Of a stretch of 64,000 bases of DNA, positions 6,058 to 55,877 are shown piece by piece. The translations under genes and the position numbers were made by a program. The stretch covers positions 26,484,913 through 26,548,912 of the forward strand of contig CM062274.1 of NCBI GenBank assembly GCA_031216635.1, read 5' to 3'. Source of the stretch: Dissostichus eleginoides. Its lineage: Eukaryota. The notes under the pieces were generated by a model. The model was not told the origin of the DNA. It saw only the letters and a list, made by a program, of their open reading frames with translations, and searched no databases. Within the stretch, counting starts at the first letter, position 1. Every line of letters starts with the position of its first letter.

Positions 6058-6210
6058 GTTTTGATCATAAACAGCTGAAAAAATGTGTCTTTCTCACGCA
6101 ACATTCTTAATTTATGTTGAGATACATATGTAAACCACAGATATTTGGGGAAATAGCTAAAGTTCTTTAACAGATACTTTTGTGTTGGTTTACCAAGTCA
6201 AATGCATGGA

Positions 6211-6277
6211 TTGGTTTGAATGACAGAGAAGAGGAAGCAATCTGGAAATGGGTGGATGGATCTCCACTGAATCTGAC
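6211..6277 (+). pseudogene. Orphan C-type-lectin exon-5 fragment ([23 protein letters not shown] followed by a gtaagg donor)
   Basis: attggtttgaatgacagagaagaggaagcaatctggaaatgggtggatggatctccactgaatctgac|gtaagg has no upstream acceptor or exon start. Equivalent fragments lie at 13655-13728 and 22476-22548. Confidence 0.6.
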
Positions 6278-6984
6278 GTAAGGCTCTACTTTGGTTTAAA
6301 TACAGACACTGGTTTATGTTGTGAATTTTCTAACTTAATTTACACTGTGAGGACAAAAGTCACATGTTTCTGTAATGGGAGTCAACACAACACACAGGAT
6401 GCATTTAATTAAAGTAAATGTTCAAATTTGATATAACTAGATCACGCAATGGCAACTTTTCTTTGACACGCATACCAAGATAAACACCTGAAGAAAAATA
6501 CTGTAGGTGTACTGAATGTGATTTGACAAGATAAAGCTCTTGCACTTCAACCAATTGGTGTTATCAGATCAAAAAGTGACTCTACCACATGCTATTATTT
6601 TTTCAATGTGAATAACTCTAAATGTTGTATGTACATGATCAGCAGCAGACAGAATGCTTCAGAGGAAAGAAATTACAATAAGTGAAATGCATGCAGCTGA
6701 TTTGGACTCTTTCGTTATTGGCTTTATAAAGTTTCAATTGTATTTTGTTAATTTATAGTTTTTTCAAGATTCAAGGCTTTTATTGTCATTCCTACAAAGC
6801 TACAGTGTAGTTATGTCGATGAAAATCTTAGGTCCCAGGCTCCTCCAACAGTGCAACACAATACAACAGATAAAATAGTGCAAGTAAATACAATCAAATA
6901 GAATAGAAGTAGTGCCATAAGAGTCTATATACAAGTGATACATCATTTGTGAGTTGCAAACTGGTGAATGTTATGGATGTTCTT

Positions 6985-7440
6985 AGTTCAGGTGTTTAAC
7001 AGTCTTATTGCCTGTGGGATGAAACTGTCCCTGAGTCTGGTGGTTTTAGTCCGGATGCTGCGGTACCGCCTGCCAGACGGCAGCAGACAGAACAGTTTGT
7101 GGCTGGGGTGATGGGGGTCTTTTATAATCCTGAGGGCTTTCTTCCTGAGCCGCTGGGAGTAAAGGTCCTCCATGGATGGCAGCTCCGTCCTGGTGATGTG
7201 CTGTGCAGTTTTCACCACCCTCTGTAAAGCCTTAAGATTGAGGGCGGTGCAGCTGCCGTACCAGGCCGTGATGCAGCCAGTCAGGATACTCTCTATGGTG
7301 CACCTGTAGAAGTTGCAGAGTATCCTGGAGTCCATGTTGAAACTCCTCAGCCTGCGGAGGAAGAAGAGCTGCTGTCGAGCTCTTTTGGTGATGGTGGTAG
7401 TGTGAAGAGTCCGTGTCAGGTCCTCAGTGATGTAGACACA
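6985..7440 (-). mobile_element. LINE (L2/Maui-like) 3' ORF fragment
   Basis: Minus ORF 6988-7335 reads ...CTIESILTGCITAWYGSCTALNLKALQRVVKTAQHITRTELPSMEDLYSQR...LLPSGRRYRSIRTKTTRLRDSFIPQAIRLLN. This is the widespread fish LINE RT C-terminal tail. Confidence 0.7.
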
Positions 7441-7689
7441 GAGGCACCTGAAGCTGCTGACTTTTTTCCAATAGTTTATTTGTGTATTTATGTAATCATG
7501 AACAAATTAAAATCTTTTGAAATGTTGTTGAAATCCGGATGTTACATTTATCATGAACTGCCAATATTATTTACCTTTATGGTTAAGTTTATGTATGTCT
7601 ATTTAACAGAATAGATTTCATAGGCAGTCAGTCTTAAACTGTCTGTAATTGTTTTAACTCTCAGCAAAAGACTCTGTCAGGTATCCACC

Positions 7690-7805
7690 TAAACCTTCGG
7701 GAAGGGGAAGTGAGAGCTGTCAAGGTGTTGACTTGGCCTCCAAATTCCCCAGATCTCAATCCAATTGAGCATCTGTGGGATGTGCTGGATAAACAAGTTT
7801 GATCC
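7690..7805 (+). mobile_element. Tc1-like transposase C-terminal fragment
   Basis: Translates to LTWPPNSPDLNPIEHLWDVLDKQV, the Tc1 DDE C-terminal motif WPSQSPDLNPIE.LW. Short related ends recur at 14380-14450 and 23215-23285. Confidence 0.7.
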
Positions 7806-8439
7806 CTGGAGGCATGGAACAGGAATGAAAGGATCTGCTGCTAACGTCTTGGTGCCAGACACCACAGGAAGCACTGGGATGGCTGCGCTGTCTCTCTTAC
7901 TCCTGGAGACGATTTTCCGCATGAATGGCTGAGGAAATCGGATCATCAAGATTATAAGGTTCAGGTTTGAGACATCAGTTCATGCTTAGTTTCCTCATTT
8001 AAGTCTTTGGTGAAACTAGCCTAAAGGGTTTCCTCATTCCATCCACTCCTTTCGACATTGTGTGGAATTCGATGGCATACTCAAAGAGAGAGTAGTCTTC
8101 TGGAGGCATCTTTAACCCGTACAGGATGGTCGAACACCCTCCACATCTCAGCTGAGAACCCCTGATACGATTCCAAAGTGGGAACCTTCTTCCCCACAAG
8201 GCTGAGACCTACTCCAAAGTGCTACCCCGAGGAGACCCATGAGGAAAGCAATCTTAGCCTTAAGACTGACACAATCCCACATCAGCGTCATACCGTTCAG
8301 GAGCGTGGACCCATGGCTCCCTGACAGGTTGTGAAATCATGGCTTCCTGTACCGGAGTTCCCGGAGGGGAACAGGCAGACTGTCTTTAATGACTCTGAGG
8401 GCTGGTAAGCTAGGCTGAAAGATCCCAAAGACTTTCACA

Positions 8440-10326: not shown

Positions 10327-10348
10327 GATGAGTCACTTCCTCAGAAGG
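10327..10348 (+). promoter_or_regulatory. Proximal promoter element of lectin gene 1: single ETS-like ACTTCCTC motif fused to an AP-1-like TGAGTCA
   Basis: gatgagtcacttcctcagaagg lies about 100 bp upstream of the ATG. It is positionally homologous to the tandem gatgtgtgacttcctcaaag repeats of the paralogs. Confidence 0.4.
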
Positions 10349-10448: not shown

Positions 10449-12596
10449 ATGGAGGAAATCAATGACGATGTGGAAACTGTAAAACCCCTAACCCCAAGAT
10501 CAGCAACAATAAAAGAAGGTAAGTGTCAGTCAGACGGAGTGAGCTGTGGATTATGGATTTATTATACTCACTGGTCTTCTCTGTGTTCAGGTCCCAGGAG
10601 CTCAGAGAGATTTCCCCGAGCGTCTGTTCTCGGTTTTGGGCTGCTGAGTGTTTTCCTGCTGGCTGTCTTCATCGGACTCAAAGTCTACTGTTAGTCTGTT
10701 TTATAAGTTAATGTCATTTTGAATTTTCAAAAGCACTTTCTGCCCTCTGCCTTTTACTTAAGTTTGTATGAATGTATGAGGTATTTTCTGTTTAGAAAAC
10801 GTGTCTCTTGATCATTTCAGGCCATTACTTAGAAGGTGTTGCAGCTGCAGATCTCTCCGCTGTCAAAGCAAACCTGACTGAGAGTCTCCAGGCCAGAGAT
10901 CAGCAGCTGTCCTCCATGACTGAAGAGAGAGACAGACTGAAGGCCAACCTCACTGAAAAGACCAGAGAGGTGGACAGGCTCCAGAGTTTGATGGGTAAGG
11001 GTGAGTGCTTCATGTGGGGGGGTTTGCATAGGGCTCGGTATGTGTATGTAAGATATCAATTTCCATAATATTTTTTACAAAATACCTCGATATTGATAGT
11101 CTAAGGCTGACTATTGATGCTTTCATAAAATAGTAACACAATGACACTTTTCATTAATGATAATCAAGAAAGAGTTTTTAATGACTTAGTTGTGAGTGAT
11201 TTAATTCATAGTTTGTTTTATTTTTCTTCACCCACCATATTTATATTTCTCTGTAAACTATGCTTATGGCCAGTTTCCTTGTCTAAATTACTTTTAATAT
11301 AAGCAATAGGAAGAAGAACTTACAGGTAGTTTGTTCCAGATATTTGCAGCATAATAATAAAAAAGGATAACAAGGTTTCAAACCAATTTAGAACTGTTGC
11401 CGAAAGTCAGACCCAGTTTTCCAGTCGGTCTAGAAACTAACACCGAGATGTTGCCACTGTCTGTGTTTAAGTGGATGTCATTGAAGACTTTAACAAGATC
11501 AGTCTCAGTCTGTGGTGCCTGACTAGATCACATCGAAACAGTTATTTAAATCCCAAAAAAACAGAAGTAGTTGTTCTGCAATGAAATTTGTGATCTCTTT
11601 TGATCCCTCTAAAAATGCTTAATAAATATGTTTTTTCATTTTTATTACAAAAGTGACATATAATGCACTCAAGAGTTCCATATTTAAGCAGTTAAAGCAG
11701 TAAATCAACAAGATCTTACAACTTTTACAGAGACAACGTGTCCTGAAGGATGGAGGAAGTTTGGTAGTTCCTGTTATCTCCTCTCTACTGAGAAAGCTTC
11801 CTGGGAACAAAGCAGAGACAACTGCACAGCCAGAGGAGCAGATCTGGTGATCATAGACAGTTATGAAGAACAGGTAATGTGTGCTGCTCTAACACTTGTG
11901 ATTGTATAACTCCCTGCTTTTATCAATCAATAATGTTTTTATTGTACATATACTAGCAAATGTGTCTATCAGCTATAATGATTACGTTACAACAATGGTG
12001 TTAATTACATATTTCTGAGCTAGTAAAAAGGGAAAAGTTATCTGAATGTTGATGTCCATCCCAGTAAACTGCATTTTTAATATGTGAACAGGAATTCATC
12101 CCCAGCATGATCAAGGAAGAAACTTGGATTGGTTTGAGTGACAGAGAAGAGGAGGGGACCTGGAAATGGGTGGATGGATCTCCACTGACCCTGAATCTGA
12201 CGTAAGGCTTTACTTTGGTTTAAATACAGACGCTGGTTTATGTTGTGACCTTTCTAAATGTTTCACATGTTTCTGTAATGGGAGTTAACACAACACACAG
12301 GATGCATTTAAACGTAGGATGTCTGCCCCTTTCACCAGAAGATTCATTTGGGTATTAAGAAAAGAACATGGCTGTATTACTTATAGTTATTTGTATTTGA
12401 TGTCCAATCTTTTAGTTAATCTTGTTTTCCTGTAATACCTGTTAGGTTTTGGATAGAAGGAGAGCCTAATAATGGAGGAGGGCGTCCAGAGTGGGGTGAA
12501 GAGGACTGTGCACTGATCTATTTTTTTTACATCAAAACGTGGAACGACCTGTCCTGTGAGGACGATCTGCATTCGATCTGTGAGAAAGAAGCTTAA
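10449..12596 (+). CDS. Type-II C-type lectin, CD209/DC-SIGN-like (CLEC4-like), gene 1: the only fully intact copy (six exons, EPN mannose-type CRD)
   Basis: Exons are 10449-10518 ([24 protein letters not shown]), 10591-10689 (TM: [24 protein letters not shown]), 10821-11000 (neck: [51 protein letters not shown]), 11731-11873 ([45 protein letters not shown]), 12092-12201 ([37 protein letters not shown]) and 12446-12596 ([49 protein letters not shown]). All junctions are GT/AG and the phases are consistent. Confidence 0.85.
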
Positions 12597-14379
12597 CATT
12601 GGTGTCTGTTTGGATACCAAACATGCAATCAAGCTTTTACAATTTATTTTAAATTGAGTTATTTAAAACTATTCAAAATGCCTGATTTCATGAATAAGAA
12701 TTACGTTTCTTGTTTCGATAAATCCTAATTAGTTTAGATTAATGTCAGTAATAAATAAATAGTCATTTAATTTTTTTTTTGCCAACTTTTGTTTGCCTCA
12801 ATTAAATTAGTGTTTGTATTAATCCTTTTACCTATCAACATAAAAACAGCTTCTTAAAAACATCTGCTGATAAGCCCACAGTTCCTGAAAGTTATAATAT
12901 TGAAGGTGCCTTATTGAGCAGAATATGATACAAAAAAGAAAAATAACAACTGTCAAACGTTATTGAATAATTCCGACATATACAACAATACTCTAGACTC
13001 AGCATTGGTCTAACTTGTTCAAATGTGTAAAATAGCCTGTGTGTTATACAGTATGTTTCCTAACAATGACCTCTTGTGGCCATGTGAGTACAAATCTATT
13101 GCAGGTATTTAACATTCATAGGTACCAGCCACTTTGTACATACTGTAAGAACTAGTGCTGTCAATTAATACAAAAATTTATGTATGTTTATCACAATAAT
13201 AATCTGGGTCTTTAACTTCAGGATTTGCTCATGTTTCATTTAAAAAGTAAACTGCCTTTTATTTGAAGTTAATTACAGTACTTTAGTAAATGGGCAAATT
13301 AGATATAGCTAGATCAGGAAATGGCAACTTTCTTTGAGCATGCATACAAAGATAAAAACCGTATGAATATATTGTGGGTGTATTACATGTTCTCTGACAA
13401 GATAAAGCTCTTCCACTTCAACAAACTGCTGTTATCAGATAAAAAGCAGCTTTACCGCTTCACCTTTTTTTCTCAAAGTGAACAACTCCTTCCTGAAAGT
13501 TATCTTTGAAATGTATATATCTATGAAAATAATTTCAAATGAAGATCCCTGCTTTCACAACAATGTCATACTATTCTCTTTTTATTAACCAGTAAAACAG
13601 ATCTATACAGGATCAATACATTTTGAATATTATTCAATTAATGCAAATATTGGTTTGAGTGACAGAGAAGAGGAAGCGACCTGGAAATGGGTGGATGGAT
13701 CTCCACTGAATCTGACGTAAGGCTCTACTTTGGTTTAAATACAGACGCTGGTTTATGTTGTGACTTTTCTAACTTAATTTACACTGTGAGGGCATAAAGT
13801 CACATGTTTCTGTAATGGGAGTCAACACAACACACAGGATGCATTTCAAGTAAATGTTCAAATTTGATATAACTAGATCACGCAATGGCAACTTTTTTTT
13901 GACACGCATACCAAGATAAACACCTCAAAAGAAATACTGTAGGTATACTGAATGTGATTTGACAAGATAAAGCTCTTGCATTTCAACCAATTGGTGTCAT
14001 CAGATATAAAAGTGACTCTACCACCTCCTATGTTTTTCAACGTGAATAAATCTAAACGTTGTATGTTTATGATCAGCAGCAGACAGAATGCTTCAGAGGA
14101 AAGAAATTACAAAAAGTGAAATGCACACAACTGATGTTTGGTATTTGGCTTCATCAAGTGTCAATTGTTTTTTGTTAAGGAGGTCATACATAGTTTATTT
14201 GTGTAATCATAAACAAATGTAAGTATTTTGAAATGTTGTTGAAATCCAGATGTTACATTTATCTACCTGTTACAAAAAATAAAAACTATCAAAAATAATG
14301 AATCAAGTACTGCCAATATTATTTACCGAATAGATTTCATTGCCAGTCAGTCTTAAAATGTCTGTAATTGTTTTACCTC

Positions 14380-14945
14380 TCAGCAAAAGACTCTTTCAGG
14401 TATCCACCTAAACATTCGGGAAGGGGAAGTGAGAGTTGATAGAGGGGCTTCAATGTGGCTATAGTTGCAAATAAACCTTCTGTAAAAGTTAGCAAAACCC
14501 AGGAACTTTTGTAGTTGCTTACAGCTTTCCAAACTGGACCTGTCATGGACTGCTTTCACCTTGGCCAGGTCCATTCTTACTTGTCCTTTGGCCATGATGT
14601 AGCTGGGAAAAGAGACCGTAGAAGCATGAAACTCACTACTCTGCTTTAACGAACATGTGATTCTCCAAAACAGCTGTGCTTCACATGCTCATTTTGTTCA
14701 TTTAAAAAAAAATATCTGAATGTCATCAAGGTATATGAAAACAATATGTTAAATATGTGCCCAAGGACAACATTTACCAGGTTTTGGAATATAGCAGGGG
14801 CATGTGTGAGTCCAAACGGCATCACCAGGTTTTCCAAATGGCCAGAGGGGTGTTGAAAGCCGTCTTCCACTCGTCTTCTTTACGGATCCGGACTGGGAGG
14901 TTTGCATTTCGGAGATCAGGTTTGGTGAAAATTGTGGCATAGGGA
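14380..14945 (-). mobile_element. LTR-retrotransposon pol (RT/connection) fragment
   Basis: Minus ORFs read ...[24 protein letters not shown] and ...LQKFLGFANFYRRFICNYSHIEAPLSTLT, which are classic gypsy/ERV RT motifs. A duplicate lies at 23214-23790. Confidence 0.7.
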
Positions 14946-15224
14946 GTCAAAGGCAAAGTTCATTAGAGACAAGGGATACTTACACCGATCAACCATAACA
15001 TCATGACCACTGACAGGTGAAGTCAAAATTATGGGGGGGGACCCTAAAAATGACCTTTCTTATTAGGGGATCGCCCCCTGATAATGGTGGTGGAGATCTA
15101 CAGTGAGGTGAAGAGGACTGTGCAAGTCTTGTAAATGGAAGGGAAACCAGAAAAAACTGGAATGATCTGCAGTGAACTACCTTTCTGCAATGGATCTGTG
15201 AAACAATGGCTTAGATTATGGCTG

Positions 15225-15440
15225 TGAGGCAGTGGGTTTGTCTTCAAATGGGAAGGTTGTGGGTTCAACCCCTGCTCCTGCCGTCAACATGTCGCTGTAT
15301 CCCACTTAACCCCAAATTGCTCCCATGGCCAATGTGTGAATGTAAGCTTCCTTGAGCAGGGGGCTCTTTCTTTGGCTGACCCTGCCTATGAATACTAGTA
15401 AAGACTGCTTTATATAAAATGCAGTCCATTTACCAATACA
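15225..15440 (+). mobile_element. tRNA-derived SINE
   Basis: ggctgtgaggcagtgggtttg...gtgggttcaacccc gives A- and B-box-like motifs. Copies lie at 24056-24270, 28672-28800 and 39670-39800. Confidence 0.5.
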
Positions 15441-16691
15441 TGTGTTAATACTTTTACAATTTATGCAAAATGACTTCCAAAGTGCTTTTGTATTTGCCAC
15501 ATTATGGAGAAAGAGATTCTACATCAACAAGTGGTTGGAGGTCAGGAATGAAGATATTGGTTTGAGTTTTGGCCAAATTTGACTGCTTGTTACTGGGAAT
15601 ATTACATGGGAAATTAGGATGTTTAGCATGTATCTTTATTTATACGTGCTCATGACCATCATATGCAATTAAAGAAAGCTACTTATTGAAAAAAACTCCC
15701 ATTGGGATTTTAGCCTTTGAGACAATTTACATGCACAAAAACCTATATAACACACTAGGGAAGGGAAACCCCAAAAAGCATAACAGGGCCTCTTTTAGAC
15801 ATTAATTGGTGGATGGGTTTTGTACAGGATATTTTCACACACTCTGAAACGTGTAACTTCCTATTTAAAAAAAATAAGAAGAGAAATGTAACCAAAAGAC
15901 ATGACATTTTTACTACTTTGAAAAGAGCCTTCTGCAAACAATGGATAAATTGTACGTACTGTACTACTAAGTTTAAAATGATAGATAGATTTACAAATGT
16001 ATTCTTGTATAAGTTCACCTGTCTAGTCCTGTCATTGCACTTCCTGTTTTATTTTGTACTTACCTTTCCCTCTCGTTTCAGAGCTCTCCTGCCCTTGTGT
16101 GTCTGTTGCAACCTTTTCCCATTACCTCGTGTATATATAGTCCTCGTCTCCCTTTGTCCTGTGCCGGTTCGTCTTGTGCCTTGTGCCATCAAGAGAGCCA
16201 GCTTTTCATGCCAAGAAACATTTGTAGCTGCTTTCACAATGAAGACATGCTATTCTCTTTTTATTAACCAGTAAAATAGATCTTTACAGGAACAGAATAT
16301 TTTGAATATTATTCATCTTAATGGCTTTGTAAGATTATATGTCTCTATTTAACACAATCGACATGATTATCACACTTGTTTCAGTCTTAAATCTGTATTG
16401 TCAATGTGCTTTGGCAATAATATGTTTTTAATATAGTCATATCAATAAAGTGTATGTGAATTTGTCTTGACACTCAGTGTGAGAAATAAACAGTATTTCC
16501 TGATAGTCTTGTTTTTTTTTTTAATAGATATGAAAAGGATGTTCAAGGTTCAAGGTTCTTTATTTGTCATACGAACATAGCTACAGAGTAGTTATGTCGA
16601 TGAAAATCTTAGGTCACAGGCTTCTCCAACAGTGCAACACAATAATACAGAAAAACAGAAAAACATAGTGCAAGTAAATATTAAAAAGTAT

Positions 16692-16739
16692 GGATGTGTG
16701 ACTTCCTCAAAGGATGTATGACTTCCTCAAAAATATAAA
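16692..16739 (+). promoter_or_regulatory. Two tandem 20-bp GATGTGTGACTTCCTCAAAG promoter repeats of lectin gene 2 (ETS/PU.1-like core GAGGAAGT on the reverse strand)
   Basis: Direct reading. The repeat is 4 copies at 25540-25619 (gene 3), 2 copies at 48163-48210 (gene 5) and 54192-54240 (gene 6), and 1 mutated copy at 36454-36480 (gene 4). Confidence 0.5.
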
Positions 16740-20390: not shown

Positions 20391-20394
20391 CTAA

Positions 20395-42655: not shown

Positions 42656-45600
42656 CACTGTCTGTAGAGGCTGCTGCGCCAATGTCTCCAAATCATGGAA
42701 GAGAACCGAGTAGAACTCTTCAAAGGGTTAATTAAAATCGAGATAACATGATTGTCTGACTCCTCTAGGCGACACATGAATTTGTACATTACATTTCTTA
42801 AAAGGGCTTGACAGGTACCCCCACGTTAACAAACAGCTGGCTGGCACTGTGCCATCCTGGTACCCTCACCAGCAACCGTATAGCATCATTGTATGCAATT
42901 TTAGTTTTTGCATGCTGCTAGCCTTGTAGTTACTCCACAGGTGAGCCGTGTACAATGGTGTACAGAAAGCTTTAAAAAGTGATACCTTGACATCTACAGA
43001 GCACTTGTGAAATGTCCGCATTAATATGTTTGCCTGGGCATACAGTTTGCAGCGTTGTCTATGGATGTCTTTGTCATCTGTGAGATCATCAGAGATATAA
43101 TGACCAAGGTACTTAATCTCACTGCACACAAGAAGAATGTTGCTACTGAGAATAAAATTAGGAAATACAGCCTTTTTATCCTCTTTACTTCGCACAATCA
43201 TGATGCTACTCTTCTTGGCATTATACTTAATATTAAAATCAATGCCATACTGGGAACAAATCCGAACAGAAGCTGTTGTAAGCCTGCACTGTACGGGGAA
43301 AAGATGATTAAATCATCTGCGTACATAAGGTGGTTGACAACAGTATCACCGATGACACTGCCAGTTTTACACAAGTTCAGTTTCCTAGACGGATCATCAA
43401 TGTACAGATTAAACAACAAAGGAGATCAAATCCCACCTTGCTTGACCCCATTACCAACATAAACATTTTCAGACACAGTATTGCCCCACTTCACCTGCAT
43501 AGTCTGATGTGCATACTAAAAGCCTAAGATCCTTATTATGTACTTGGGTACCCCTCTTTGGCACATTTTTTCAAATGATTTGAAATGATTCAGTCTATCA
43601 AATGCCCTAGAAGCATCAATAAAATACAGAAACATGGTGGAATTTTGGCTTCTATATTTTGCTATAATGTCTTTTAAAGCAAAAATACACATATCTGTGC
43701 TGTGTTTTCTTTTAAAACCAAACTGGTTGTCAGCTGTGGTAATATACCTTTCCAGCTTATCCAACATAATTTTCTCCAGCACTTTGGAGAGAATGCTAGC
43801 TAAAGCAATAGGTCTGTAATTATCAATGCCATTAATTTTCCCAGCTTTATCCTTGATGACTGGCACAAGTAGCACAGATAACATGGAAACTGGTAAGACA
43901 CCAGGAAACCAGTAAGACACAGAGCAAGAAGAGGAGCAAGCTTAAGACTGGCATCTTTTAAGTGTTCAGCTGAGATGACATATGACAAGCATGATCATTT
44001 CTGACGTGGAGCTAATCTAAACTAAACATTGAATACTGCTTTATATTCCTCCATCTTGTGACTGTGTAACTCCCTCTCTTGTATATCAGCATGTGAAGGA
44101 CACTGTTCAGGAACTAATTGTACCAAATGCTCTGTATGTGATGACTACTTCCATTCTTGCAAGGATAATAAATACATGTATCCTGATTATTGAAGCTCAA
44201 GCCGGTGAAGAGTGATATTTTCCTAACAATTAGCATGAAAACACCTACCACAAACTCAGAGTGAGTGTTGGGGGTGCGGCAGAACCCGTGCACGCTGTCG
44301 TATCCCTCCGGAACCTCGGTCAGGTTGAGGTCTTTCTTATGGACGTCAGTGCACTGACCCAACGCCACATCACACACCAACAGCAGCCGAGAGCCGTCTG
44401 TCTCGCTGGGCTTGGAGTATTTCAAACTGGTGATGTGGATAAGGAGAGTGGAAAACAGTCTCACTACAGATGAGTGTGTTGTTGCCATCTGGTTCCCCAT
44501 AGGATGAAATGAGGATCAAAGACTCATTAGAAAAGCACCTTTTAGATCAGGGGTGTCCAAACTACGTCCCGGGGGCCAAATGCGGCGCGAGGATTTTGAC
44601 TATGGGTGAATTCTGGGGGGGCTTGTGTGGTGATTGACATTATTCACCCACGGAACTATGGGTTTGGGTATTGTTCCGCACGGACATTTGAGTTATACGG
44701 ACTTCCTGTTTACCCCGGTCTTGCTTCCCGGGCTTGAAGCTGTTGACATGTTGTTCAGATGCTAAATAAAAGTCTAGCTTGTACCTTTGATACCCCGCCT
44801 CCGACTCCCGTCTCTCGGCACTACAATACTTAAGAAATTGCTGGATATCACAGTCCTTATACTGTATCTTATCAGTTTGATTGAGTATTATTGTGTAGGT
44901 CCTTTTTATTTTACTGTTACTTTGGATGTGTTTCTAATGAGTCAGTCAAATTAATTTATTTTCATATGCCATATTCATATGTATCACACACGTAAGGGTA
45001 AGACACAAACCTATTTAACAAATGCAATGCAATGGATAAGCTTAATTTTCACTGAAGTCACAGATAACGTCATATCTAATATTTAAACAAATCATTTCCT
45101 TGTCACTAAAGCATTGACTACGCTATTCATCGTCCTTAAATGCAGGCTCTAAGTTACATGTTCCGTTCTACAGCCACAATAAGGCTGTTTCTCAAGTGTG
45201 ATGATAATAAAATGAAAAGAGGCATTGGTAATATTATTAAAAACAACAATGTTTGGGTCGTTCTTCGGATAGGCGGTTAGCTGCAATAAATAACTCCAGT
45301 TCAACAAACCATATTACAATATCTAAGGGAGCGTTATTTCTGGACCATCTTGAAATGTGACGTTCATATTTTAAAGATACACACATTTTATTGTGAGGTT
45401 GATTTAAAATACACTAAGCCTCTCTTCAACAATACGTTGACGTTAGCTAGTCTATTTTATGCCATAGTAGAGCATAGCGAATTTAAATGAACCTTAACAA
45501 TGCATACAGTAACCTAACTAGCAAACTAACTATCTAACGTACAAGGAAGACCTTATTTTACCAACCTCACACAGAAGCCTTTTGGTATACAGTAGCATCC

Positions 45601-48312
45601 CACTTAATTTTTACACTTCTCTATTACGTTTAACTTGGATGCTACGCATAGCATCGTTAGCACAGATGGAGCTACGATTGCTCAAATGCTAACCCAACTC
45701 TAAACATTCATTAACATTAGCTAAATAAAAACACCAGTAACATAACATAAAGAACGCAGGGTTGACTTACCGAAGACACTGCATTCATGGACGGTCTGTT
45801 TTAACTGCAGATAAATCCTATATTTGCATGACGAATAGTCCACCAGGAGCCAACACAACAAACACGGCCGAGTTCAAGTAGTGTTCTCCGCATGAGCTGA
45901 GCCCCTGTAGCATCACGGAGCTAATGGAGCTAACGGAGCTAACGGAGCTAGCAGTGAGACAGAGGAGCTAGGAGCAGCAGTCCCGTTGTCATGAAGGGGG
46001 AATCTAACTATATACAGAATATGCTTTTTTGGATCCAGGCTAGAAACATGTTCATTTTCTGATGTTAAGTTGGACATTTTAACATAGGGTCTACGGGAAT
46101 TGCTCCCATCTGCATCCATCGCCTACAGTTTGCAGCATTGGGCTTCTCACCGCACATTCCCGGAGTTCGCCGCTTGGCTCTGATAGGCCAGAAGTCGGTT
46201 TGATTGCATTCGGGCTCGATTGCTTATCCTGTCTGGGTAGCCCGGTTGATACTGCATCGACATTTTTGACATCGAATTTTAAACACCGAAATTGTCCATT
46301 CAAATTGTTTTCACTTGAATTTTTGGGATCTGAATTTGACCATTCGAATTGTTTTCACTTGAATTGTTACATTTTTATTTCACATGGGTAAATTCGGAGC
46401 AAAAAAAATCAGATACATGATTTTCAAAGTAATTATTTTCAATGCTATAAATTCGGTGTCTGATAAAATTCAAATACTTCTGTCTCTTGTTTGCTTCCAT
46501 AGTTGCACGGCGAGATACGGCTCGAGAAGCTGACTCAGATGAATGAGGCGAGTAAACACAGCTGACAGCCGCCGTCAAACTTGAGCGATTATTCAATCGC
46601 GTCTGTCGTGAACGCACCATTATTACAAGTATTATATAATTACAAAATAAAATTGCCACTCTCAGTACAGCGCCACTTTCCGAACAGGAAATGCACGCAA
46701 ATACAATCTTTTATATTATTATTATTATTAATAATATATATAAATAAAGACATATTGTATTTTAGTTATACCCGCTATTGATTCATTTAGTCAACATTGG
46801 ACCTTGAAACTGTCCACATAGCTATAGTGAAATAATATAATAGAAAACATTAAGCCTCTTTGATTTAATAATCGGAGCTGAAACCTCTCTGCAATCTCAT
46901 ATAATACTAACTTCCTTATTTATCTTTGAATAATAATAACATAAAAATAAAGACGACTACACTACGGTCCTTCGGTCCTGATATTAGTGCCTGCAGGCAG
47001 GCTCCATGGGCCTGTCAGCTCTGGACAGCGCAAAATGCGTATATGAAGTGCTACGTCATGAACGCAATAAATCATACCCTCGTGGGGGCGAGCTCATGTG
47101 ATTGGCTTAGAATGGGGAGGCTGTGGCGCAGTGGGCTAGTGCGTTGGTGTTCGCGCCAGGGGGTCACAGGTTCAAACCCCACTGCACTCAGCATGTCATT
47201 GTGTCCCTGGGCAAGACACTTCACCCCAAATTGCTCCTGTGGGGATTGTCCACAGTATTGAGTATGTAAGTCGCTTTGGATAAAAGCGTCTAACAAGTAA
47301 CATGTAATGTAATGGAGGAGACATCTGATTGGCTATAGATAGAACAAAGTACAGTATACGAATCGGTTCACCGTCAGGGGAGTCTCAAAAAACCCACACA
47401 CGAATGCACAGCGATCCATGCACAGAAAGCGGGTTGTGTTTGCAGGTGCAGCGGTTTTAAACGGAAAACAAATATTTGTGGATCAAAAATACATATGTAA
47501 AACTTTTATTTACATGTAGCCTATATGAGGAAACGGAACACATGCGACACAACTCTCTGAACAACACAACCCTCTGATGCGTGTGTTGGTAGCTTGGCAC
47601 GCAACTTCCCTGGAACCGTTGCTGCTTCCAGTGTTTCCTCCTGAAGTCTTTGATCACTACCCAGTCACCGGGCTTGAAGTGGTGTTGTGGCGCATCAGCT
47701 GGCGTCGGCAGTATGGCTTTCACCTGAGAGTGGATAGCTGAGAGGGAGACTGAAAGACTTATTCAGTAGTTCAACAAAAGGTAACTTAAATTGTCTCAAC
47801 TTTCAGAAACTAACATTACATTAACAGAATAATATTCTTTAAATCTGTGCCATTTCGTCTTGTGCCTTGTGCCATCAAGAGAGCCAGCTTTTCACGGCAA
47901 AACATATTTGTAGCTGCTTTCACAATGATGACATGCTATTCTCTTTTTATTAACCAGCAAAATAGATCTTTACAGGATCAGAATATTTTGAATATTATTA
48001 ATCTTTATGGCTTTGTAAGATTATATGTCTCTATTTAACACAATGGACATGATTATCACACTTGTTTCAGTCTTAAATCTGTATTGTCACTGTGCTTTTT
48101 AATATTGTCACATCAATAAAGTTAGTATTTCCTGATCTTCTTCTTTTTTTTTTATATATAAAATGATGTGTGACTTCCCCAAATGATGTGTGACTTCCTA
48201 AAAAAAAGGTAAAGCATTTAGAAATTCAAACCAGCAACCACACTTTCCCCGGTCACATACTTCAGGATACTTGCTGCAGAGCTGACCTTCTAGGAAAGAG
48301 TTGGCATGAGCA

Positions 48313-50577
48313 ATGGAGAAAATCTATGACAATGCTGTTGATGTCATATCCCTAAGCTCAAGATCATCTGCAAAACAAGAAGGTAAGAGTGTCAGTCAGA
48401 GTGCACTGTGGATTTTGGATTTACTGTATTACTCCCTGGTTTTCTCTGTGTTCAGGTCCCAGGAGATTTCTCAGAGAGTCTGTTCTCGGTCTGGGGCTGC
48501 TGAGTGTTTTCCTGCTGTCTGGACTCATCGGCCTCGCTGTCCACTGTGAGTCCGTCTTTTAATATGTTTAATAATATCATTTTGTACGTGTGATTTTAAG
48601 GAGCAATATTCTGCAGGGAAAGATGCACCATTTGACCAAAACATCCATCGTTTTTCTACTTTTCTCCTAGGGCCAAAACATTAATTTTGGTTTGTGTCAG
48701 TATGATTGCATCAGGTAATTTAAGAAACATCTATTTTGATTTCAGACCATAACTCAGTAGGTGGCGCAGCTGCAGATCTCTCCGCTGTCAAAGCAAACCT
48801 GTCCTCAGTGACTGAAGAGAGAGACAACCTGACTGAGCGTCTCCAGGCCAGAGATCAGCTGCTGTCCTCAGTGACTGAAGAGAGAGACAGTCTGAAGGCC
48901 AACCTCACTGAGCGTCTCCAGGCCAGAGATCAGCTGATCAACCAGCTGAAGGCCAACCTCACCGAAAAGACCAGAGAGGTGGACAGGCTTCAGAGTTTGA
49001 TGGACAAGGGTGAGTGCTTCATGTGGGGTTTTGCATCGGGCTCGGTATGTGTAAGATATCAATTATCATAATATGTTTTACAAAATACCTCGATATTGAT
49101 AGTCTAAGGCTGACTATTGATCCGTTCATAAAATAGTTACAGAATGACACTTTTCATTAATGATAATTAAGAATTAGTTTTTAATGACTAAGTTGTGAGT
49201 GATTTAATTTATAGTTTGTTTTATTTTTCTTCACCCACCATATTTATATTTCTCTGTAAACTATGCTTATGGCCATTTTCCTTGTCTAAATTACTTTTAA
49301 TATAAGCAATAGGAAGAAGAACTTAGAGGTAGTTTGTTCCAGATATTTGCAGCATAATAATAAAAAAGGATAACAAGGTTTCAAACCAATTTAGAACTGT
49401 TGCCGAAAGTCAGACCCAGTTTTCCAGTCGGTCTAGAAACTAACACCGAGATGTTGCCACTGTCTGTGTTTAAGTGGATGTCATTGAATACTTTAACAAG
49501 ATCAGTCTCAGTGCTGTGGTGCCTGACTAGATCACATCGAAACAGTTATTTAAATCCCAAAAAAACAGAAGTAGTTGTTCTGCAATGAAATGTGTGATCT
49601 CTTTTGATCCCTCTAAAAATGCTTAATAAATATGTTTTTTCATTATTCTTACAAAAGTGACATATAATGCACTCAAGAGTTCCATATTCCAGCAGTTAAA
49701 GCAGTAAATCAACAAGATCTTAACACTTTTACAGAGAAAACGTGTCCTGCAGGATGGAGGAAGTTTGGTAGTTCCTGTTATCTCCTCTCTACTGAGAAAG
49801 CTTCTTGGGAACAAAGCAGAGACAACTGCAGAGCCAGAGGAGCAGATCTGGTGATCGTAGACAGTAAGAAGAACAGGTAATGTGTGCTGCTCTAACACTT
49901 GTGATTGTATAACTCCCTGCTTTTATCAATCAATAATGTTTTTATTGTACATATACTAGCAAATGTGTCTATCAGCTATAATGATTACGTTACAACAATG
50001 GTGTTAATTACATATTTCTGAGCTAGTAAAAAGGGAAAAGTTATCTGAATGTTGATGTCCATCCCAGTAAACTGCATTTTTAATATGTGAACAGGAATTC
50101 ATCTCTAGCATGAAGATGAAGGAACACACTTGGATTGGTTTGAGTGACAGAGAAGAGGAGGGGACCTGGAAATGGGTGGATGGATCTCCACTGACCCTGA
50201 CTCTGACGTAAGGCTTTACTTTGGTTTAAATACAGACGCTGGTTTATGTTGTGACCTTTCTAAATGTTTCACATGTTTCTGTAATGGGAGTTAACACAAC
50301 ACACAGGATGCATTTAAACGTAGGGTGTCTGCCCCTTTCACCAGAAGATTCATTTGGGTATTAAGAAAAGAACATGGCTGTATTACTTATAGTTATTTGT
50401 ATTTGATGTCCAATCTTTTAGTTATCTTGTTTTCCTGTAATACCTGTTAGGTTTTGGAACGGAGGAGAGCCTAACAATATTGACGAAGAGGACTGTGCAG
50501 AATTGTATCCTTACACCAATGGGTGGAACGACCAGTCCTGTCGGGACGATCTGCATTCGATCTGTGAGAAAGATTAA
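48313..50577 (+). pseudogene. CD209-like C-type lectin, gene 5 (type A, EPN) with a 1-nt deletion frameshift in exon 4
   Basis: Exons are 48313-48382 ([24 protein letters not shown]; an uATG lies upstream), 48456-48545 (TM), 48746-49009 (neck: [79 protein letters not shown]), 49735-49876 (142 nt, against 143 in the paralogs: gacagtaagaagaacag versus gacagttatgaagaacag), 50095-50207 ([38 protein letters not shown]) and 50451-50577 ([41 protein letters not shown]). Confidence 0.7.
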
Positions 50578-52803
50578 CATTGGTGTCTGTTTGGATCCTA
50601 AACATGCAATCATGCTTTTACAATTTAGTTTAAATCGAGTTATTTAAAACTATACAAAATGTCTGATTTCATGAATAATAATTACTTTGCTTGAATTGAT
50701 AAATCACATTTATTTAGTGTTTTTGTTTAGGATCAATATCAGTAATAAATACATAGTCATTTAATTAGTTTTTGCCAACTTTTGTTTGCCTCAATTAAAT
50801 TAGTATTTGTATTAATCCTTTTACATATCAACATTAAAACAGCTTATTAAAAACATCTGCTGATAAGCCCACAGTTCCTGAAAGTTATAATATTGAAGGT
50901 GCCTTATTGAGCAGAATATGATACAAAAAAGAAAAATAACAACTGTCAAACGTTATTGAATAATTCCGACATATACAACAATACTCTAGTCTCAGCATTG
51001 GTCTAACTTGTTCAAATGTGTAAATAGCCCTGTGTGTTTATACAGTATGTTTCCTAACAATGACCTCTTGTGGCCATGTGAGTACAAATCTATTGCAGGT
51101 ATTTAACATTCATAGGTACCAGCCACTTTGTACATACTGTAAGAACTAGTGCTGTAAATTAACACAAACATGTATGTATGTTTATCACAATAATAATCTG
51201 GGTCTTTAACTTCAGGATTTGCTCATGTTTCATTTAAAAAGTAAACTGCCTTTTATTTGAAGTTAATTACAGTACTTTAGTAAATGGGCAAATTAGATTT
51301 AGCTAGATCAGGAAATGGCAACTTTCTTTGAGCATGCATACAAAGATAAAAACCGTATGAATATATTGTGGGTGTATTACAAGTTATCTTTGAAATGATG
51401 TGCACATTTTATATTTATGATCAGCGGCAGACAGAGTACTTCAGAGGAAAGACATTTGTGTTTATCAGCATTTAAAATTAAGATCCCTGCTTTCACAACA
51501 ATGTCATGCTATTCTCTTTTTATGAACCAGTAAAACAGATCTATACAGGATCAATACATTTAGAATATTATTCATCTTTATGGCTTTGTAAAATGATATG
51601 TCTCTATTTAACACAAAGGACTTGATTATCTCACTTGTTTCAGTCATAAATCTGTATTGTCAATATGCTTTGGCAATAGTGTGTTTTAAATGTGGGCATG
51701 TCAATAAAGCTTATTTGAATTTGTCTTGACTCTCAGCGTGAGAAAAAAAAACAATTTCCTTATATTTTTGAGATAGATATATAGATAATTATCTGGTACA
51801 GTTGCTAGGACTACCTTTAGCACTTAAGAGGTGTGACGTATTGATGGTGTTTTGTTTTATCCTTTACGAAAATGGAAATAGCGTAAAGTTTACGCTATTT
51901 CCATTTCCCCAGACATTAGACATCATATTTCAAACTATCTAGATGAAAATATTTTTATAGGGCAGTTTTTTTTATAAGTTAATATCATTTTGAATTTGTA
52001 ATTTTCAAAACCACTTTCTGCACTCTGCCTTTTACTTAAGTTTGTATCAGTATGAGGTATTTTCTGTTTAGAAATGGTGTCTCTTGATCATTTCAGGTTT
52101 TATATTTCATAACAAACTTGATTTCAGATTTTCAATTTACTTCAGGTCATCACTAAAATAGATTCCACTGCCCAGATTACCCGCGTCTGTTCTCTCAATC
52201 CCATGATGCTCCACTCCGACACGGGGCGGCAGCAGACCACTAAAGAGAGGGTAAACATTGTTAAAGTAAAAAAAATCCAAATAAAATGTCTTAGTTGTCC
52301 ATTTGAAGACCTTCACTAAACTGTACCTGTCTGCAGTACAATATCATCAAATATATCACGTTGCTAAAGCTACGCTCCACTTTGAGTCTAAGCGCTCAAT
52401 TCAGATGAACTGCTTGTTTGGAGTTGTTCACATTATTCTTAAAAGGAACCAACATCAGAATCCAATTTGAACTGGTTGCACAAAGGAACTATAACACTCA
52501 CGTTACACACAGCATAGACTATGATCTATGAGCTTCATTTATCCCTAAATACAGCAGGGGGATCCCAGCAAAACTGCCTTTAATTAAATGTAGAGCCAAA
52601 GAGCCCAGGAAAGTAAACCTTTTTTCTAATTTCAAGTCAGAACAGTATACCATGTTTTCTTGGTGGTACACCCTCCGTACAGAAGTCAGTCTGGATTTAA
52701 AAAATCAACAAGTACTTTTTCGTCTCAGAAATTATCTTTATCAGTTTCCTTGCAAAAAAACCTGGGATTGTCCAACAGAAATTGACAGATACATGTCAGG
52801 ATG

Positions 52804-52804
<1 letters not shown>

Positions 52805-52843
<39 letters not shown>
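52805..52843. repeat. (GT)n microsatellite
   Basis: Direct reading. Confidence 0.9.
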
Positions 52844-52844
<1 letters not shown>

Positions 52845-53205
52845 CCATTTCATATACATGTAAATAAAATCCAAATACAGAAAAAAGTTTTACATATGTA
52901 TTTTTGATCCTCACATATTTGTTTTCCGTTTAAAACCTCTGAACCTGCAAACACAAACCGCTTTCTGTGCACGGATCGCTGTGCATTCGTGTGTGTTTTT
53001 TTTTGCATAAACTGTATATATAAATGGACGTAGGGTCCGTGACGTCACTCATAGGATTCTGCAGAGTTGCCGAGAAGCCCTTAGTAGGCGGAGTCGGCCA
53101 CTAACGGCTCGACAGTGACGTCAGAGTCTAACTCCCGCCTGCTCCAAAAATCAATTGAATATTATTCATCTGTATGGCTTTGTAAGATTATATGTCTCTA
53201 TTTAA

Positions 53206-53738
53206 AGGTCCCATGTCATGGCCATTTCTACTGATCATAATTCCATTGTTGAGGTCTACCAGAATAGATTTACATTGTGCAATTTTCCAAACTCACATTG
53301 GTTTCTCATACAGCATCTCTGTATAGTATGTGTATTCACTCTCTGTCCTACACGGCTTGTTGGAGCTCCTGCTCCCCCCCTCCCTGTGAGCCCACTGTGC
53401 TCTGATTGGTCAGCTCGCCCACTCTGTTCTGATGAGTCCACCACCGTTACAGCGGAACATCAGTGATTATGTGTTACAATGGCGTTAGCAACCAGAAAAT
53501 GACACCAGTAATGACAAACAGATGAGAATGCTGCGTGGGGTCTGGGTGCCGTGTTGGCGGGACGTTGCGCTGCTCGCTGCTGCGAGGAGCGGACAGTGTG
53601 AGCTGGGTTCATTTCCTGCTTGCTGTGTGGGGTCTGCGAGACAGCGAGACATCGCGAATGGACGCGGGAAGTGGGGGGTGCTGAGGGGGCTGCAGCACCC
53701 CCATCTGTGAGGCTCCACTAGCAAATGTACCCCCCCTG

Positions 53739-53795
<57 letters not shown>

Positions 53796-54046
53796 AGCGC
53801 CACGGATTGGTCCATTTGGACGAATGGGTCCATTTGGGTATGGTCACGTCACTGTACCCAGGAAGAAAAAGAGAAATCTCCAACGAGGCGTTCAGGGGCA
53901 GCATAGACAGGTCTTTTCTGTGTTAGAGTTTTACTCGCTATAGGGTACTTTGAGGGTTTGTGACTCTGCAGACCGTTTACATGCAGAAAAACCTTCATAA
54001 CACACAAGGGGACGGGTAATAACCAGAAAAGCATGACATGGGACCT
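53206..54046. mobile_element. Second non-autonomous TIR element with a TTAA target-site duplication (about 840 bp; contains a (GT)26 tract at 53742-53794)
   Basis: The termini AGGTCCCATGTCATG...CATGACATGGGACCT form a 15-bp perfect inverted repeat. TTAA sits at 53202-53205 and 54047-54050. The empty site ctctatttaacacaatcgacatg is seen at 16337-16360 in the paralogous repeat unit. Confidence 0.8.
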
Positions 54047-54344
54047 TTAACACAATGGACATGATTATCACACTTGTTTCAGTCTTAAATCTTTATTGTC
54101 AATGTGCTTTGGCAATAGTATGTTTTTAATATAGTCATATCAATAAAGCTAGTATTTCCTGATATTTTTCTTTTTTTGTTTGGATATAAAATGATGTGTG
54201 ACTTCCTCAAATGATGTGTGACTTCCTCAAAAAGATAAAGCATTTAGTAATCCAAACCAGCAACCACACTTTCCCTGGTCACATACTTCAGGATACTTGC
54301 TGCAGAGCTGACCTTCTAGGAAAGAGTTGACATTCCCACGAGCA

Positions 54345-54959
54345 ATGGAGGAAATCTATGTCAATGTTGACGTTGTCAAAACCCTAAGCTCAAGATCATC
54401 TGAAAAACAAGAAGGTAAGAGTATCAGACCGAGTGAACTGTGGATTTTGGATTTATTAAACTTCCTGGTTTTCTGTGTTCAGGTCCCAGGAGACTTCTCA
54501 GAGCGTCTGTTCTCGGTCTGGGGCTGCTGAGTGTTTTCCTGCTGGCTGGACTCATCGGCCTCGCTGTCCACTGTGAGTCTTTCTTTTAATACGTTTAATA
54601 ATGTCAATTTGAACGTGTGATTTTCTAGAGCAATATTCTGCTCTGAAAGATGCACATTTGACCAAAACATCTATAATTTTTCTACTTTTCTCCTAGGGCC
54701 AAATTGGGAAAACATTTACTTTGGTTTGTGTCAGTATGATTGCATCAGGTAATTTAAGAAACATCTATTTTCATTCCAGACCATAACTCAGTAGGTGTTG
54801 CAGCTGAGCGTCTCCAGGCCAGAGATCAGCTGATCAACCAGCTGAAGGCCAACCTCACTGAGCGTCTCCAGGCCAGAGATCAGCTGATCAACCAGCTGAA
54901 GGCCAACCTCACCGAAAAGACCAGAGAGGTGGACAGGCTTCAGAGTTTGATGGACAAGC
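54345..54959 (+). pseudogene. Truncated CD209-like lectin gene 6: exons 1-3 only (tail, TM, 2-repeat neck); no CRD exons follow
   Basis: Exons are 54345-54414 ([24 protein letters not shown]), 54483-54572 ([30 protein letters not shown]) and 54780-54959 ([53 protein letters not shown]). Homology to the other copies ends near 55150. Confidence 0.65.
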
Positions 54960-55877
54960 GTGAGTGCTTCATGTGGGGTTTGCATAGGGCTCGGTATGTG
55001 TATGTAAGATATCAATTATCATAATATTTTTACAAAATACCTCGATATTGATCATCTAAGGCTGACTATTGATCCTTTCATAAAATAGTTACACAATGAA
55101 ACTTTTCATTAATGATAATCATGAATTAGTTTTTAATGACTTAGTTGTGAGTGATTTCATTTATACACTGCAAAAACAAAGCCTCAAAAAACAAGTAAAA
55201 TAAATAGTAAAATGAGTAATATATTACTTAAAATAAGAAAAATTATCTACCAACAGAACAAGAAAGATTCACTTGCCAAGACCTTCTTAAAACAAGTAAA
55301 TAAATCTAGCCTAAAAAGATCTACAGATATCTTAAAACAAGTGTTTTTAAACAAAAAATAAGTACATTTGAATTGAAACAAGGAATATCTTTAAGAATTA
55401 TAATCTTATAAGGAAAATGTGCTTGAATTCAGCATATTCTACTGCTATTGTCCCAAAATTCTATTTTATGTTAGGTAACATATCTTAAATCCAGTGCAGC
55501 TTCACTTTAAACAGGTACATTTGTCTAGATACAAAGATGAGATTTAAGAATTATTTTCTTAATATGTAGAAAAATCTACTTAAATTCAGCATTCGGTGCT
55601 ATTCTTAAAATAAGGCTAAATACCAAGAAACGTAGAGACAAAACCTTCAAAAATCTTTAATCCTATCAAGATATAAACTTTGACTGCTTGCATAAAGAAA
55701 AATATGAGTCTCAAATGATTTCTTTTAATGTTTTTATTGTTTTCAAACTGCGTAGTAAAGGTCAGTCATCAGATATGTCTTTAGAAAAAAAGAGAACATT
55801 ATTTCACTGTAAAATGCAACGCAAGTGAAATTCTCATGACACTTTTGACTCAGCGAACAATTCTCAATAGGATTATA

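Follow-up and report, generated by a model that had tools for sequence, protein, structure and literature searches.

The stretch of DNA analysed here, hereafter the window, comprises 64,000 nucleotides (nt) of the genome of the toothfish Dissostichus eleginoides (NCBI GenBank assembly GCA_031216635.1, contig CM062274.1, positions 26,484,913 to 26,548,912 of the forward strand), and in all likelihood it holds a tandem, partly decayed cluster of DC-SIGN/CLEC4-like type II membrane lectin genes. Its history would have left two intact genes with the triad Glu-Pro-Asn (EPN; G1 and G2), one gene in which the triad reads Thr-Pro-Asp (TPD; G3), three copies that are disabled or truncated (G4–G6), and remnants of six exons. 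The TPD-bearing carbohydrate-recognition domain (CRD), here called type B, is orthologous to a receptor that is conserved among cryonotothenioids, and its triad is best read as a derivative of the galactose-type Gln-Pro-Asp (QPD) lineage and not as a modified EPN.

A tandem array of type II lectin genes

The window has about 38% G+C. In six-frame translation the hallmarks of the C-type lectin-like domain (CTLD), namely WIGL, EPN or TPD, and WND, are confined to the + strand and recur from 6.2 to 50.6 kb; with the 5′ exons of G6 included, exons of the array extend over 6.2–55.0 kb of that strand. Stop-to-stop open reading frame (ORF) pieces cluster into families that correspond to the cytoplasmic-tail/transmembrane (TM) region, the neck and three CRD exons. 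G1–G5 are described by six-exon models with GT-AG introns and consistent phases (tail, TM, neck, CRD1, CRD2 and CRD3), the boundaries of which are, exon for exon, those of the independently annotated Pseudochaenichthys georgianus orthologue. Searched with the Pfam profile PF00059 (Lectin_C, cut-off 22.6 bits), the spliced products of G1 (E = 1.6e-21, 77.5 bits), G2 (E = 6.6e-25, 88.4 bits) and G3 (E = 1.7e-22, 80.6 bits) all matched over profile positions 2–107 of 107, and all three contain WIGL and the C0/C0′, C1–C4 and C2–C3 cysteines; none had an exact-sequence match in the databases searched. The gene models and a structure model of an orthologue (see below) agree on a type II layout, with an N-terminal tail, one TM segment, a neck and a single C-terminal CRD. 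The array is genuine and goes far beyond what chance would produce, and the profile matches and GT-AG models bear out the preliminary description of the window, made by a model from the letters alone, which had proposed a tandem array of such genes. A functional product would carry a short tail with the Tyr motif MEEIYxNV, a TM helix, a helical neck of repeats each bearing NLT and a Ca2+-type CRD encoded by three exons.

The same description gave all six copies an identical six-exon architecture. The six-exon models of G1–G5 support this in part, but only G1 and G2 are cleanly intact, G3 is ambiguous, and G4, G5 and G6 are defective or truncated, G6 having three exons. An uninterrupted ORF with canonical splice sites is found in G1 and G2 and not in G4, G5 or G6, and it is likely that only two or three of the approximately six copies make a working receptor. 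The two divergent classes of terminal exon and the scattered orphan exons that had been reported are both present: CRD3 of type A and type B is only 57–65% identical, and six exon remnants were located in the array besides G1–G6. Divergence between the classes increases along the CRD, with CRD1 94–100% identical among all copies and CRD2 88–94% identical within the A group, 99% within the B group and 80–84% between A and B.

Both intact genes belong to type A. G1 (10449–12596, +) encodes 250 amino acids in exons 10449–10518, 10591–10689, 10821–11000, 11731–11873, 12092–12201 and 12446–12596, the last of which carries EPN, GEEDC and WND with a long Gly-rich loop. G2 (16845–18992, +) encodes 224 amino acids in exons 16845–16914, 16984–17073, 17280–17396, 18132–18274, 18493–18599 and 18845–18992; it has a short neck and the tail MEEIYVNV, and its terminal exon again carries EPN, GEEDC and WND, so the EPN...WND reading given earlier for type-A exons is seen in both genes. 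All five site-2 ligand positions of a mannose-type CRD (EPN, the downstream Glu and WND) are present in G1 and G2, for which mannose/fucose/GlcNAc-type binding is predicted.

The TPD gene and the ancestry of its triad

The type-B gene G3 (25733–28674, +; 244 amino acids) has exons 25733–25802, 25873 (or 25880)–25963, 26171–26350, 27076–27218, 27430–27533 and 28521–28674. Its terminal exon reads YWGSTPDNGGGDPVWGEEDC...NWNDLRC, with the TPD codons at 28534–28542, as had been described. A type-A terminal exon hidden inside the 987-nt intron 5 was considered and ruled out, none being present there. The TM exon contains one extra T (in the T-run 25885–25887) relative to all paralogues, and the frame is broken with the canonical acceptor at 25873 and open only via an AG 7 nt downstream (25880). 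Because the G3 TM exon of a second D. eleginoides assembly (GCA_025770515.1) is without the extra T, and its TPD exon is intact, the lesion is an allele or an assembly error and not fixed pseudogenisation.

A search with G3 against 5.8 billion proteins returned 688 homologues. The best, publicly named ‘CD209 antigen-like’ or ‘CLEC4E-like’, are notothenioid, from Trematomus bernacchii (82% identity), P. georgianus (81%), D. eleginoides itself and Pogonophryne albipinna; in T. bernacchii about 20 members of the family are annotated. Among the best 120 of the 688 homologues the triad is QPD in 67, EPN in 11, PPD in nine, TPD in three and KPD in three, with single cases of RPD, NPD, WPD and MPN, and almost all of these triads sit in the same long loop, xPDNGGGDPxWGEEDC...NWND. 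Since QPD dominates this census and the long loop is common to both, the sequences argue that TPD is a Gln-to-Thr derivative of the galactose-type QPD lineage. The preliminary description had TPD replacing EPN within the locus; this has to be abandoned in favour of descent from QPD with its long loop, the prevailing type among percomorph homologues.

The three TPD proteins in the census are the orthologues from T. bernacchii, P. georgianus and P. albipinna. CRD exons 2 and 3 of G3 share 94–95% amino acid identity with them, whereas type-A exons reach at most 76% within the same set of hits to the G3 query, and because of this difference in best identity type B is read as a conserved orthologue and type A as part of a fast-turnover set. 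Four genomes carry the TPD exon in intact form (Trematomus, Pseudochaenichthys, Pogonophryne and the second toothfish assembly), and TPD therefore predates D. eleginoides, as the same exon occurs in three other notothenioid genera. No paper on a TPD motif in C-type lectins was found in the searchable literature, the triad being visible in public notothenioid protein records. Literature searches on the RPD motif returned nothing relevant, those on notothenioid C-type lectin expansion nothing on the present family, and neither the TPD triad nor the 18-residue neck repeat described below appears in PMC514892 or the other papers found.

Predicted consequences of the Gln-to-Thr change

In an alignment of 63 family members, conservation is 90% or higher at P200, D201, N202, E211, E212, D213, N228, D229, D176 and E180, and position 199 is variable; by homology to DC-SIGN, D176 and E180 are the auxiliary-site positions. 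An HMMER alignment to DC-SIGNR places Thr opposite the Glu of EPN and Asp opposite its Asn, with EDC and WND matched. Altered or lost carbohydrate specificity had been suggested for type B on the basis of its triad. The triad of G3 is indeed neither EPN nor QPD, but the other four of the five site-2 ligand positions are retained together with the site-1 positions, and a change in specificity is a prediction from the motif. An explanation that would accommodate these observations is that Gln-to-Thr substitution turned a galactose-type QPD into TPD with all other Ca2+-site ligands kept; the likeliest result would be a CRD that still binds Ca2+ and in which monosaccharide recognition is weakened or changed.

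The fold was examined with an AlphaFold2 (AF2) model of the T. bernacchii TPD orthologue, based on a 62-sequence alignment and with Ca2+ not modelled. It has a mean predicted local distance difference test (pLDDT) score of 83, mostly above 90 in the CRD, a TM helix at residues 29–57 and a continuous neck helix at 61–114. Foldseek searches against the PDB gave a probability of 1.00 to about 50 CTLD structures, among them Mincle (38% identity), DC-SIGNR and SRCL (root-mean-square deviation, rmsd, 1.7 Å) and DC-SIGN (39–41% identity), with further matches to MGL, ASGR1/2 and Fugu Mincle (9kpl). The top single-domain matches (Mincle, DC-SIGN(R), Dectin-2, SRCL, ASGR and MGL) all belong to group II, and in both the toothfish models and the P. 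georgianus orthologue the CRD is encoded by three exons, as is typical of group II CTLD receptors. On this model the fold class is group II, without a unique mammalian counterpart. An ice-binding role of the type II antifreeze protein (AFP) kind was also considered, since the distant matches include sea raven and other type II AFPs; the membrane anchor and the kept Ca2+ ligands make such a role unlikely.

Another possibility is that TPD keeps galactose-type specificity, the Thr hydroxyl or a bridging water replacing the Gln amide, so that mannose-type and galactose-type receptors stand side by side in the array. This would fit with the derivation of TPD from QPD, with retention of the Asp of QPD and of the WND pair, and with structural neighbours that include the galactose-type SRCL, MGL and ASGR at an rmsd of 1.7–2.4 Å. 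The Thr side chain is, however, shorter than that of Gln or Glu, no CTLD precedent for TPD was found in the literature, and toothfish type B has no Trp directly after the triad, where ASGR1 carries the Trp that stacks on galactose. We consider retained galactose specificity unlikely, and continue to favour weakened or changed monosaccharide recognition.

Constraint on the type-B CRD was estimated by the Nei-Gojobori method over 393 nt for toothfish, icefish and plunderfish pairs, an underpowered comparison with only 14–16 differences per pair. Between species, non-synonymous divergence (dN) was 0.036–0.040, synonymous divergence (dS) 0.038–0.066 and their ratio (omega) 0.55–0.96. Intron 5 of G3 differs from that of the second D. 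eleginoides assembly at 2 of 987 positions and from those of icefish and plunderfish by 6.3–7.6%; exon divergence between species, at 3.6–4%, is about half of this.

Several points weigh against the overall explanation given here. The omega values are indistinguishable from neutrality, and protein-level constraint is not demonstrated by them. Both type-B copies in the window bear frame-disrupting lesions. The loop around TPD (201–220) is the least confident part of the structure model (pLDDT 72–77), AF2 having been run without Ca2+. Some lesions, especially the homopolymer T of G3, may be assembly errors, and some of the differences in modules between the two toothfish assemblies may likewise reflect mis-assembly of near-identical repeats.

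Perhaps the TPD lineage is no longer a lectin, Ca2+ site 2 having been abolished with the loss of the Gln/Glu ligand and the protein having either acquired a non-glycan (protein or lipid) ligand, in the manner of NK-receptor-like CTLDs and of the cichlid killer-cell lectin-like receptors (cKLR), or begun to drift towards a pseudogene. Apart from the omega values and the damage to both type-B copies, both of the related remnants termed B′ (below) contain stops, and the first triad residue in related fishes is P, K, R, N, W or M, which cannot coordinate Ca2+ as Gln or Glu does. The cKLR genes, which are without canonical Ca2+/sugar residues, also cluster with the fish DC-SIGN subgroup (PMC514892). 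Yet the ORF is intact in four genomes from several notothenioid families, which is unlikely without selection, conservation is 90% or higher at every other ligand position of sites 1 and 2, the exons evolve at about half the intron rate, and the T insertion of G3 is missing from the other assembly of the same species. An ORF that stays intact in four genomes over such divergence would argue against a dead gene, and we regard loss of lectin function as a minority possibility.

A more far-reaching proposal is that in cold-water perciforms the first QPD residue of this long-loop CRD has been freed from Ca2+/sugar duty, the receptor keeping its site-1 scaffold and recognising a different ligand class in a new, site-2-independent way, with TPD being a conserved cryonotothenioid specialisation and not decay. 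Cryonotothenioids have T at this residue, and zoarcoids, cottoids, sablefish and serranids have P, K, R, N or W there; we offer the proposal as a long shot. A CRD that would still bind Ca2+, with its sugar recognition weakened or changed, is the reading we prefer. TPD is in any case a natural variant of the Ca2+/sugar site that is conserved in Antarctic fishes, and if its binding differs from that of QPD and EPN it could inform the rules of CTLD specificity.

Decayed copies and exon remnants

G4 (36581–39672, +) belongs to type B, has five repeats in its neck and ends in a terminal exon that is disabled; its exons are 36581–36650, 36724–36813, 37021–37362, 38087–38229, 38441–38544 and 39527–39672. 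The preliminary description had this gene carry STPDNGGG as G3 does. Its terminal exon in fact reads YWGSTLDNGGLTLGEEDCASLVWKGNQNKLE*, with STLDNGG instead of STPDNGGG: a Pro-to-Leu change (CCT to CTT) gives TLD at 39540–39548, a segment at 39555–39569 is 6 nt shorter, and a 2-nt deletion within 39588–39600 (near 39593) shifts the frame before WND, with loss of WND and the last two cysteines. Only one intact type-B exon, that of G3, is left in the window.

G5 (48313–50577, +; exons 48313–48382, 48456–48545, 48746–49009, 49735–49876, 50095–50207 and 50451–50577) is a frameshifted copy termed type A′. A 1-nt deletion at the 3′ end of CRD exon 1 (49860–49876) leads to a stop in CRD exon 2. A third type of terminal exon is found in this gene, in which the loop is short and DC-SIGN-like (EPNNIDEEDC) and the site-2 ligand set is present. 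G6 (54345–54959, +) is a 5′ fragment consisting of tail (54345–54414), TM (54483–54572) and neck (54780–54959) exons; its homology to the paralogues ends near 55165, and sensitive tblastn found no CRD exon 3′ of it within the window, up to 64000.

The damage extends to public annotation. A public model named ‘CD209 antigen [Dissostichus eleginoides]’ (P0053) is 100% identical to the tail, the frameshifted CRD exon 1 (VIVDSKKNR) and the terminal exon of G5, and by leaving out CRD exon 2 it regains the frame. The remaining public models (P0003, P0011 and P0016) are chimeric, read through introns or contain the type-B exon in the wrong frame. With public toothfish models here being chimeric, exon-skipping or frame-shifted, the present finding mainly serves annotation.

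The remaining exons of the array, all on the + strand, are orphans. A fragment of CRD exon 2 lies at 6195–6278. A type-B′ remnant (13649–15214) consists of a partial CRD exon 2 (13649–13717) and a terminal pseudo-exon (15066–15214) that reads SPPDNGGGDLQ*GEEDC...NWNDLQ*, with two in-frame stops; the corresponding remnant in the icefish and plunderfish loci is free of stops. At 20387–20527 a type-A terminal exon is represented by its 3′ part, which has no acceptor and reads KEPNNGGVHPQSGEEDC...WND...EKEA*. A second type-B′ remnant (22472–24045) again combines a partial CRD exon 2 (22472–22537) with a terminal pseudo-exon (23897–24045) of the same SPPDNGGGDLQ*GEEDC...NWNDLQ* reading, including the in-frame stops. 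Use of the B′ exons as alternative 3′ exons of G1 and G2 is ruled out by the truncated CRD exon 2 and the in-frame stops.

Growth and decay of the array

Local duplication, already proposed as the way in which the cluster arose, is evident from blocks of 98–99% self-similarity and from the different order of modules in the second assembly. One block is a recent segmental duplication (26195–36382 and 37207–48097, +; 98–99% identity, with an insertion of about 0.7 kb in copy 2), the first unit of which comprises the G3 CRD and intergenic DNA and the duplication of which generated G4. Self-comparison gave a second recent duplication, 13542–16731 and 22365–25579 (98.1% identity), each containing a B′ remnant and the next promoter. 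Both copies of the larger duplication begin inside 54-nt neck repeat arrays, and breakpoints at these positions would fit unequal exchange within the neck. We propose that both growth and decay of the cluster result from unequal recombination whose breakpoints lie in the neck repeat arrays; unequal exchange there would alter both gene number and neck length, and the locus provides a clean example of birth-and-death evolution in innate immune lectin receptors.

Positions 1–1831 of the window are a 96–99% copy of the 3′ flank behind type-A terminal exons (12729–13513, 19161–20376 and 50684–51970), and since the window begins with such a flank at least one further type-A gene probably lies just upstream.

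Between G3 and G4 the terminal exon is 92% identical and the adjoining intron 98.5% identical, the differences in the exon being concentrated locally in the ligand-binding loops. One dinucleotide of the type-B exon (28588–28602 in G3, 39588–39600 in G4) exists in three states: GTAGATGG (VDG) in icefish, plunderfish and the second toothfish assembly, GTACCTGG (VPG) in G3 and GTA--TGG, a frameshift, in G4. In the second assembly (JAOVFM010000009.1:1327091-1356977) the modules of the window recur at 97–99.5% identity, but their order and number are not the same: in one case a 5′ end resembling that of G4 runs straight into a type-A CRD resembling that of G5. Such differences point either to polymorphism in copy number or to a cluster that has been mis-assembled.

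Blocks of 98–99% identity, together with a second assembly that differs in module order and is without the T insertion of G3, might also be expected if the six-gene array were mostly an assembly artefact of a smaller cluster, in which near-identical modules had been mis-joined or duplicated, and the frameshifts were sequencing errors. We hold this to be highly improbable. The paralogues differ by many substitutions and in the number of neck repeats, and the terminal exon of G4 bears three independent lesions. Introns of G3 and G4 differ by 1.5%, against 0.2% between G3 and the second assembly, and the two are therefore distinct loci and not duplicated reads. The approximately 20 family members annotated in T. 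bernacchii also make large arrays normal in this clade. A genuine cluster with partly decayed members is how we read the locus.

Neck, tail and promoter elements

The neck is built from a 54-nt (18-residue) repeat, of which G4 has 5.0 copies (37045–37315, +) and G3 (26195–26303, +) and G6 (54804–54912, +) have 2.0 copies each. Every 18-residue repeat includes one NLT sequon, and the neck helix is continuous in the orthologue model, in keeping with the helical, repeat-built neck that had been described; N-glycosylation of the neck is predicted from the sequons, and the repeats presumably oligomerise the receptor. In the 63-sequence alignment M1, E2, Y5 and N7 of the tail motif MEEIYxNV reach a conservation of at least 90%. 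The similarity of this motif to the acidic-YxxL hemITAM of CLEC9A and to a pYxN Grb2 site is a lead to possible signalling. The tail of G1, MEEINDDV (exon 1, 10449–10518), is without the Tyr and Asn of the motif and, if expressed, G1 may differ in signalling or trafficking.

A 20-nt promoter-proximal tandem repeat, GGATGTGTGACTTCCTCAAA, occurs in four copies upstream of G3 (25540–25619, +), and its reverse complement contains GAGGAAGT, an ETS/PU.1-type core. Two copies are found at G2 (16692–16731), at G6 (54189–54231) and, in degenerate form, at G5 (48161–48203), and single copies at G1 (10332–10345) and, with the core mutated, at G4 (36460–36473). The 14-mer GTGACTTCCTCAAA (reverse complement GAGGAAGT) has 12 matches in the window against 0.74 expected, all of them 115–190 nt upstream of the six ATGs, which supports a shared promoter element. 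Of the myeloid-type promoter motifs that had been proposed, an ETS/PU.1-like motif is thus present upstream of every gene; myeloid expression of the array genes is a prediction from it.

Other features of the window

A long terminal repeat (LTR) retrotransposon remnant lies at 2911–5629 (+). Its gag-like ORF of 615 amino acids contains a zinc knuckle and a capsid domain of the SCAN type (E = 2.1e-17), and a C-terminal piece of an integrase comes after this ORF; the remnant accounts for the G+C-rich, strongly GC-skewed stretch at 2–6 kb. The intergenic part of the duplicated unit of about 10 kb contains a PARP catalytic-domain fragment (PF00644, E = 6.7e-9) at 32400–32786 (-) and 44114–44500 (-), and small PARP-matching genes are called at equivalent places in the second toothfish assembly. 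Reverse-transcriptase-like ORF fragments at 6988–7335 (-), 31153–31488 (-) and 43516–43920 (-; RVT_1, E = 6.9e-12) indicate insertions of long interspersed nuclear elements in the intergenic spacers. Outside the lectin array, an ORF of 336 amino acids at 58136–59146 (-) is Pro/Ser-rich at both ends and has no Pfam match, and a direct repeat of about 970 bp (60317–61286 and 63029–64000; 99.5% identity) is unrelated to the lectin modules.

Comparison with known lectin systems

Among solved structures, DC-SIGN and DC-SIGNR (CD209/CLEC4M) are the best sequence match (C-terminal CRD half, E = 4e-13; 37–41% identity; rmsd 1.7–3.5 Å). They resemble the toothfish proteins in being type II, in having a helical neck built from a variable number of repeats and in the EPN...WND of type A, and their GLxDxNQEGTWxWVDGxPL has a near-identical counterpart in CRD exon 2 of type B. 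The DC-SIGN neck repeat is 23 residues long, against 18 in toothfish, and compared with DC-SIGNR the fish CRD has five additional residues in the loop after the triad and five in the next hairpin. The tail motifs differ as well, and according to PMC514892 the genes are not orthologous. ‘CD209-like’ is a label only and not a claim of orthology, since identity to DC-SIGN is just 37–41%, several group II members score equally, and no tetrapod orthologue of the fish subgroup is reported to be identifiable (PMC514892).

The top single-domain match in both Foldseek and phmmer searches was Mincle (CLEC4E), with 38–40% identity and 98.9 bits. Mincle combines EPN with a hydrophobic glycolipid groove and signals through FcRgamma via a TM arginine; in contrast, the toothfish sequences have no charged TM residue. 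ASGR1/2, MGL (CLEC10A) and SRCL are galactose-type receptors with QPD, the type from which toothfish type B descends, and superimpose with an rmsd of 1.7–2.4 Å, but identity is just 34–38% and Gln is replaced by Thr in toothfish type B. In ASGR1, as in MGL, the Gly-rich stretch between the triad and EDC is of similar length to that of the fish CRDs, which would also fit retained galactose-type specificity and is a lead and not a test.

A fish expansion of the same kind has been known since 2004, and the current understanding is not overturned by the present array. In Fugu, group II includes a DC-SIGN subgroup (DC-SIGN-F1 to F8) that is peculiar to fish and has expanded in tandem, and this fish subgroup has no identifiable tetrapod orthologue (Zelensky & Gready 2004; PMC514892). 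Its members, named ‘CD209 antigen-like protein A/C/E’ or ‘CLEC4E-like’ in databases, share with the toothfish genes a type II layout, a single C-terminal CTLD, tandem clustering and the lack of a one-to-one tetrapod orthologue; the toothfish set differs in its own pattern of decay, and its notothenioid homologues reach 82% identity over the full length and 95% over CRD exons 2–3. The array had been described as paralleling the mammalian CD209/CLEC4 cluster while having arisen independently. The expansion is fish-specific (PMC514892). A CRD in three exons and a type II layout are also found in mammalian group II genes, so that only the expansion, and not the architecture, is independent. The cichlid cKLR clusters, in which canonical Ca2+/sugar residues are lost, are related to the fish DC-SIGN subgroup (PMC514892). 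Like the toothfish array they are multi-copy teleost clusters, while toothfish type B has lost only one of the five site-2 ligands.

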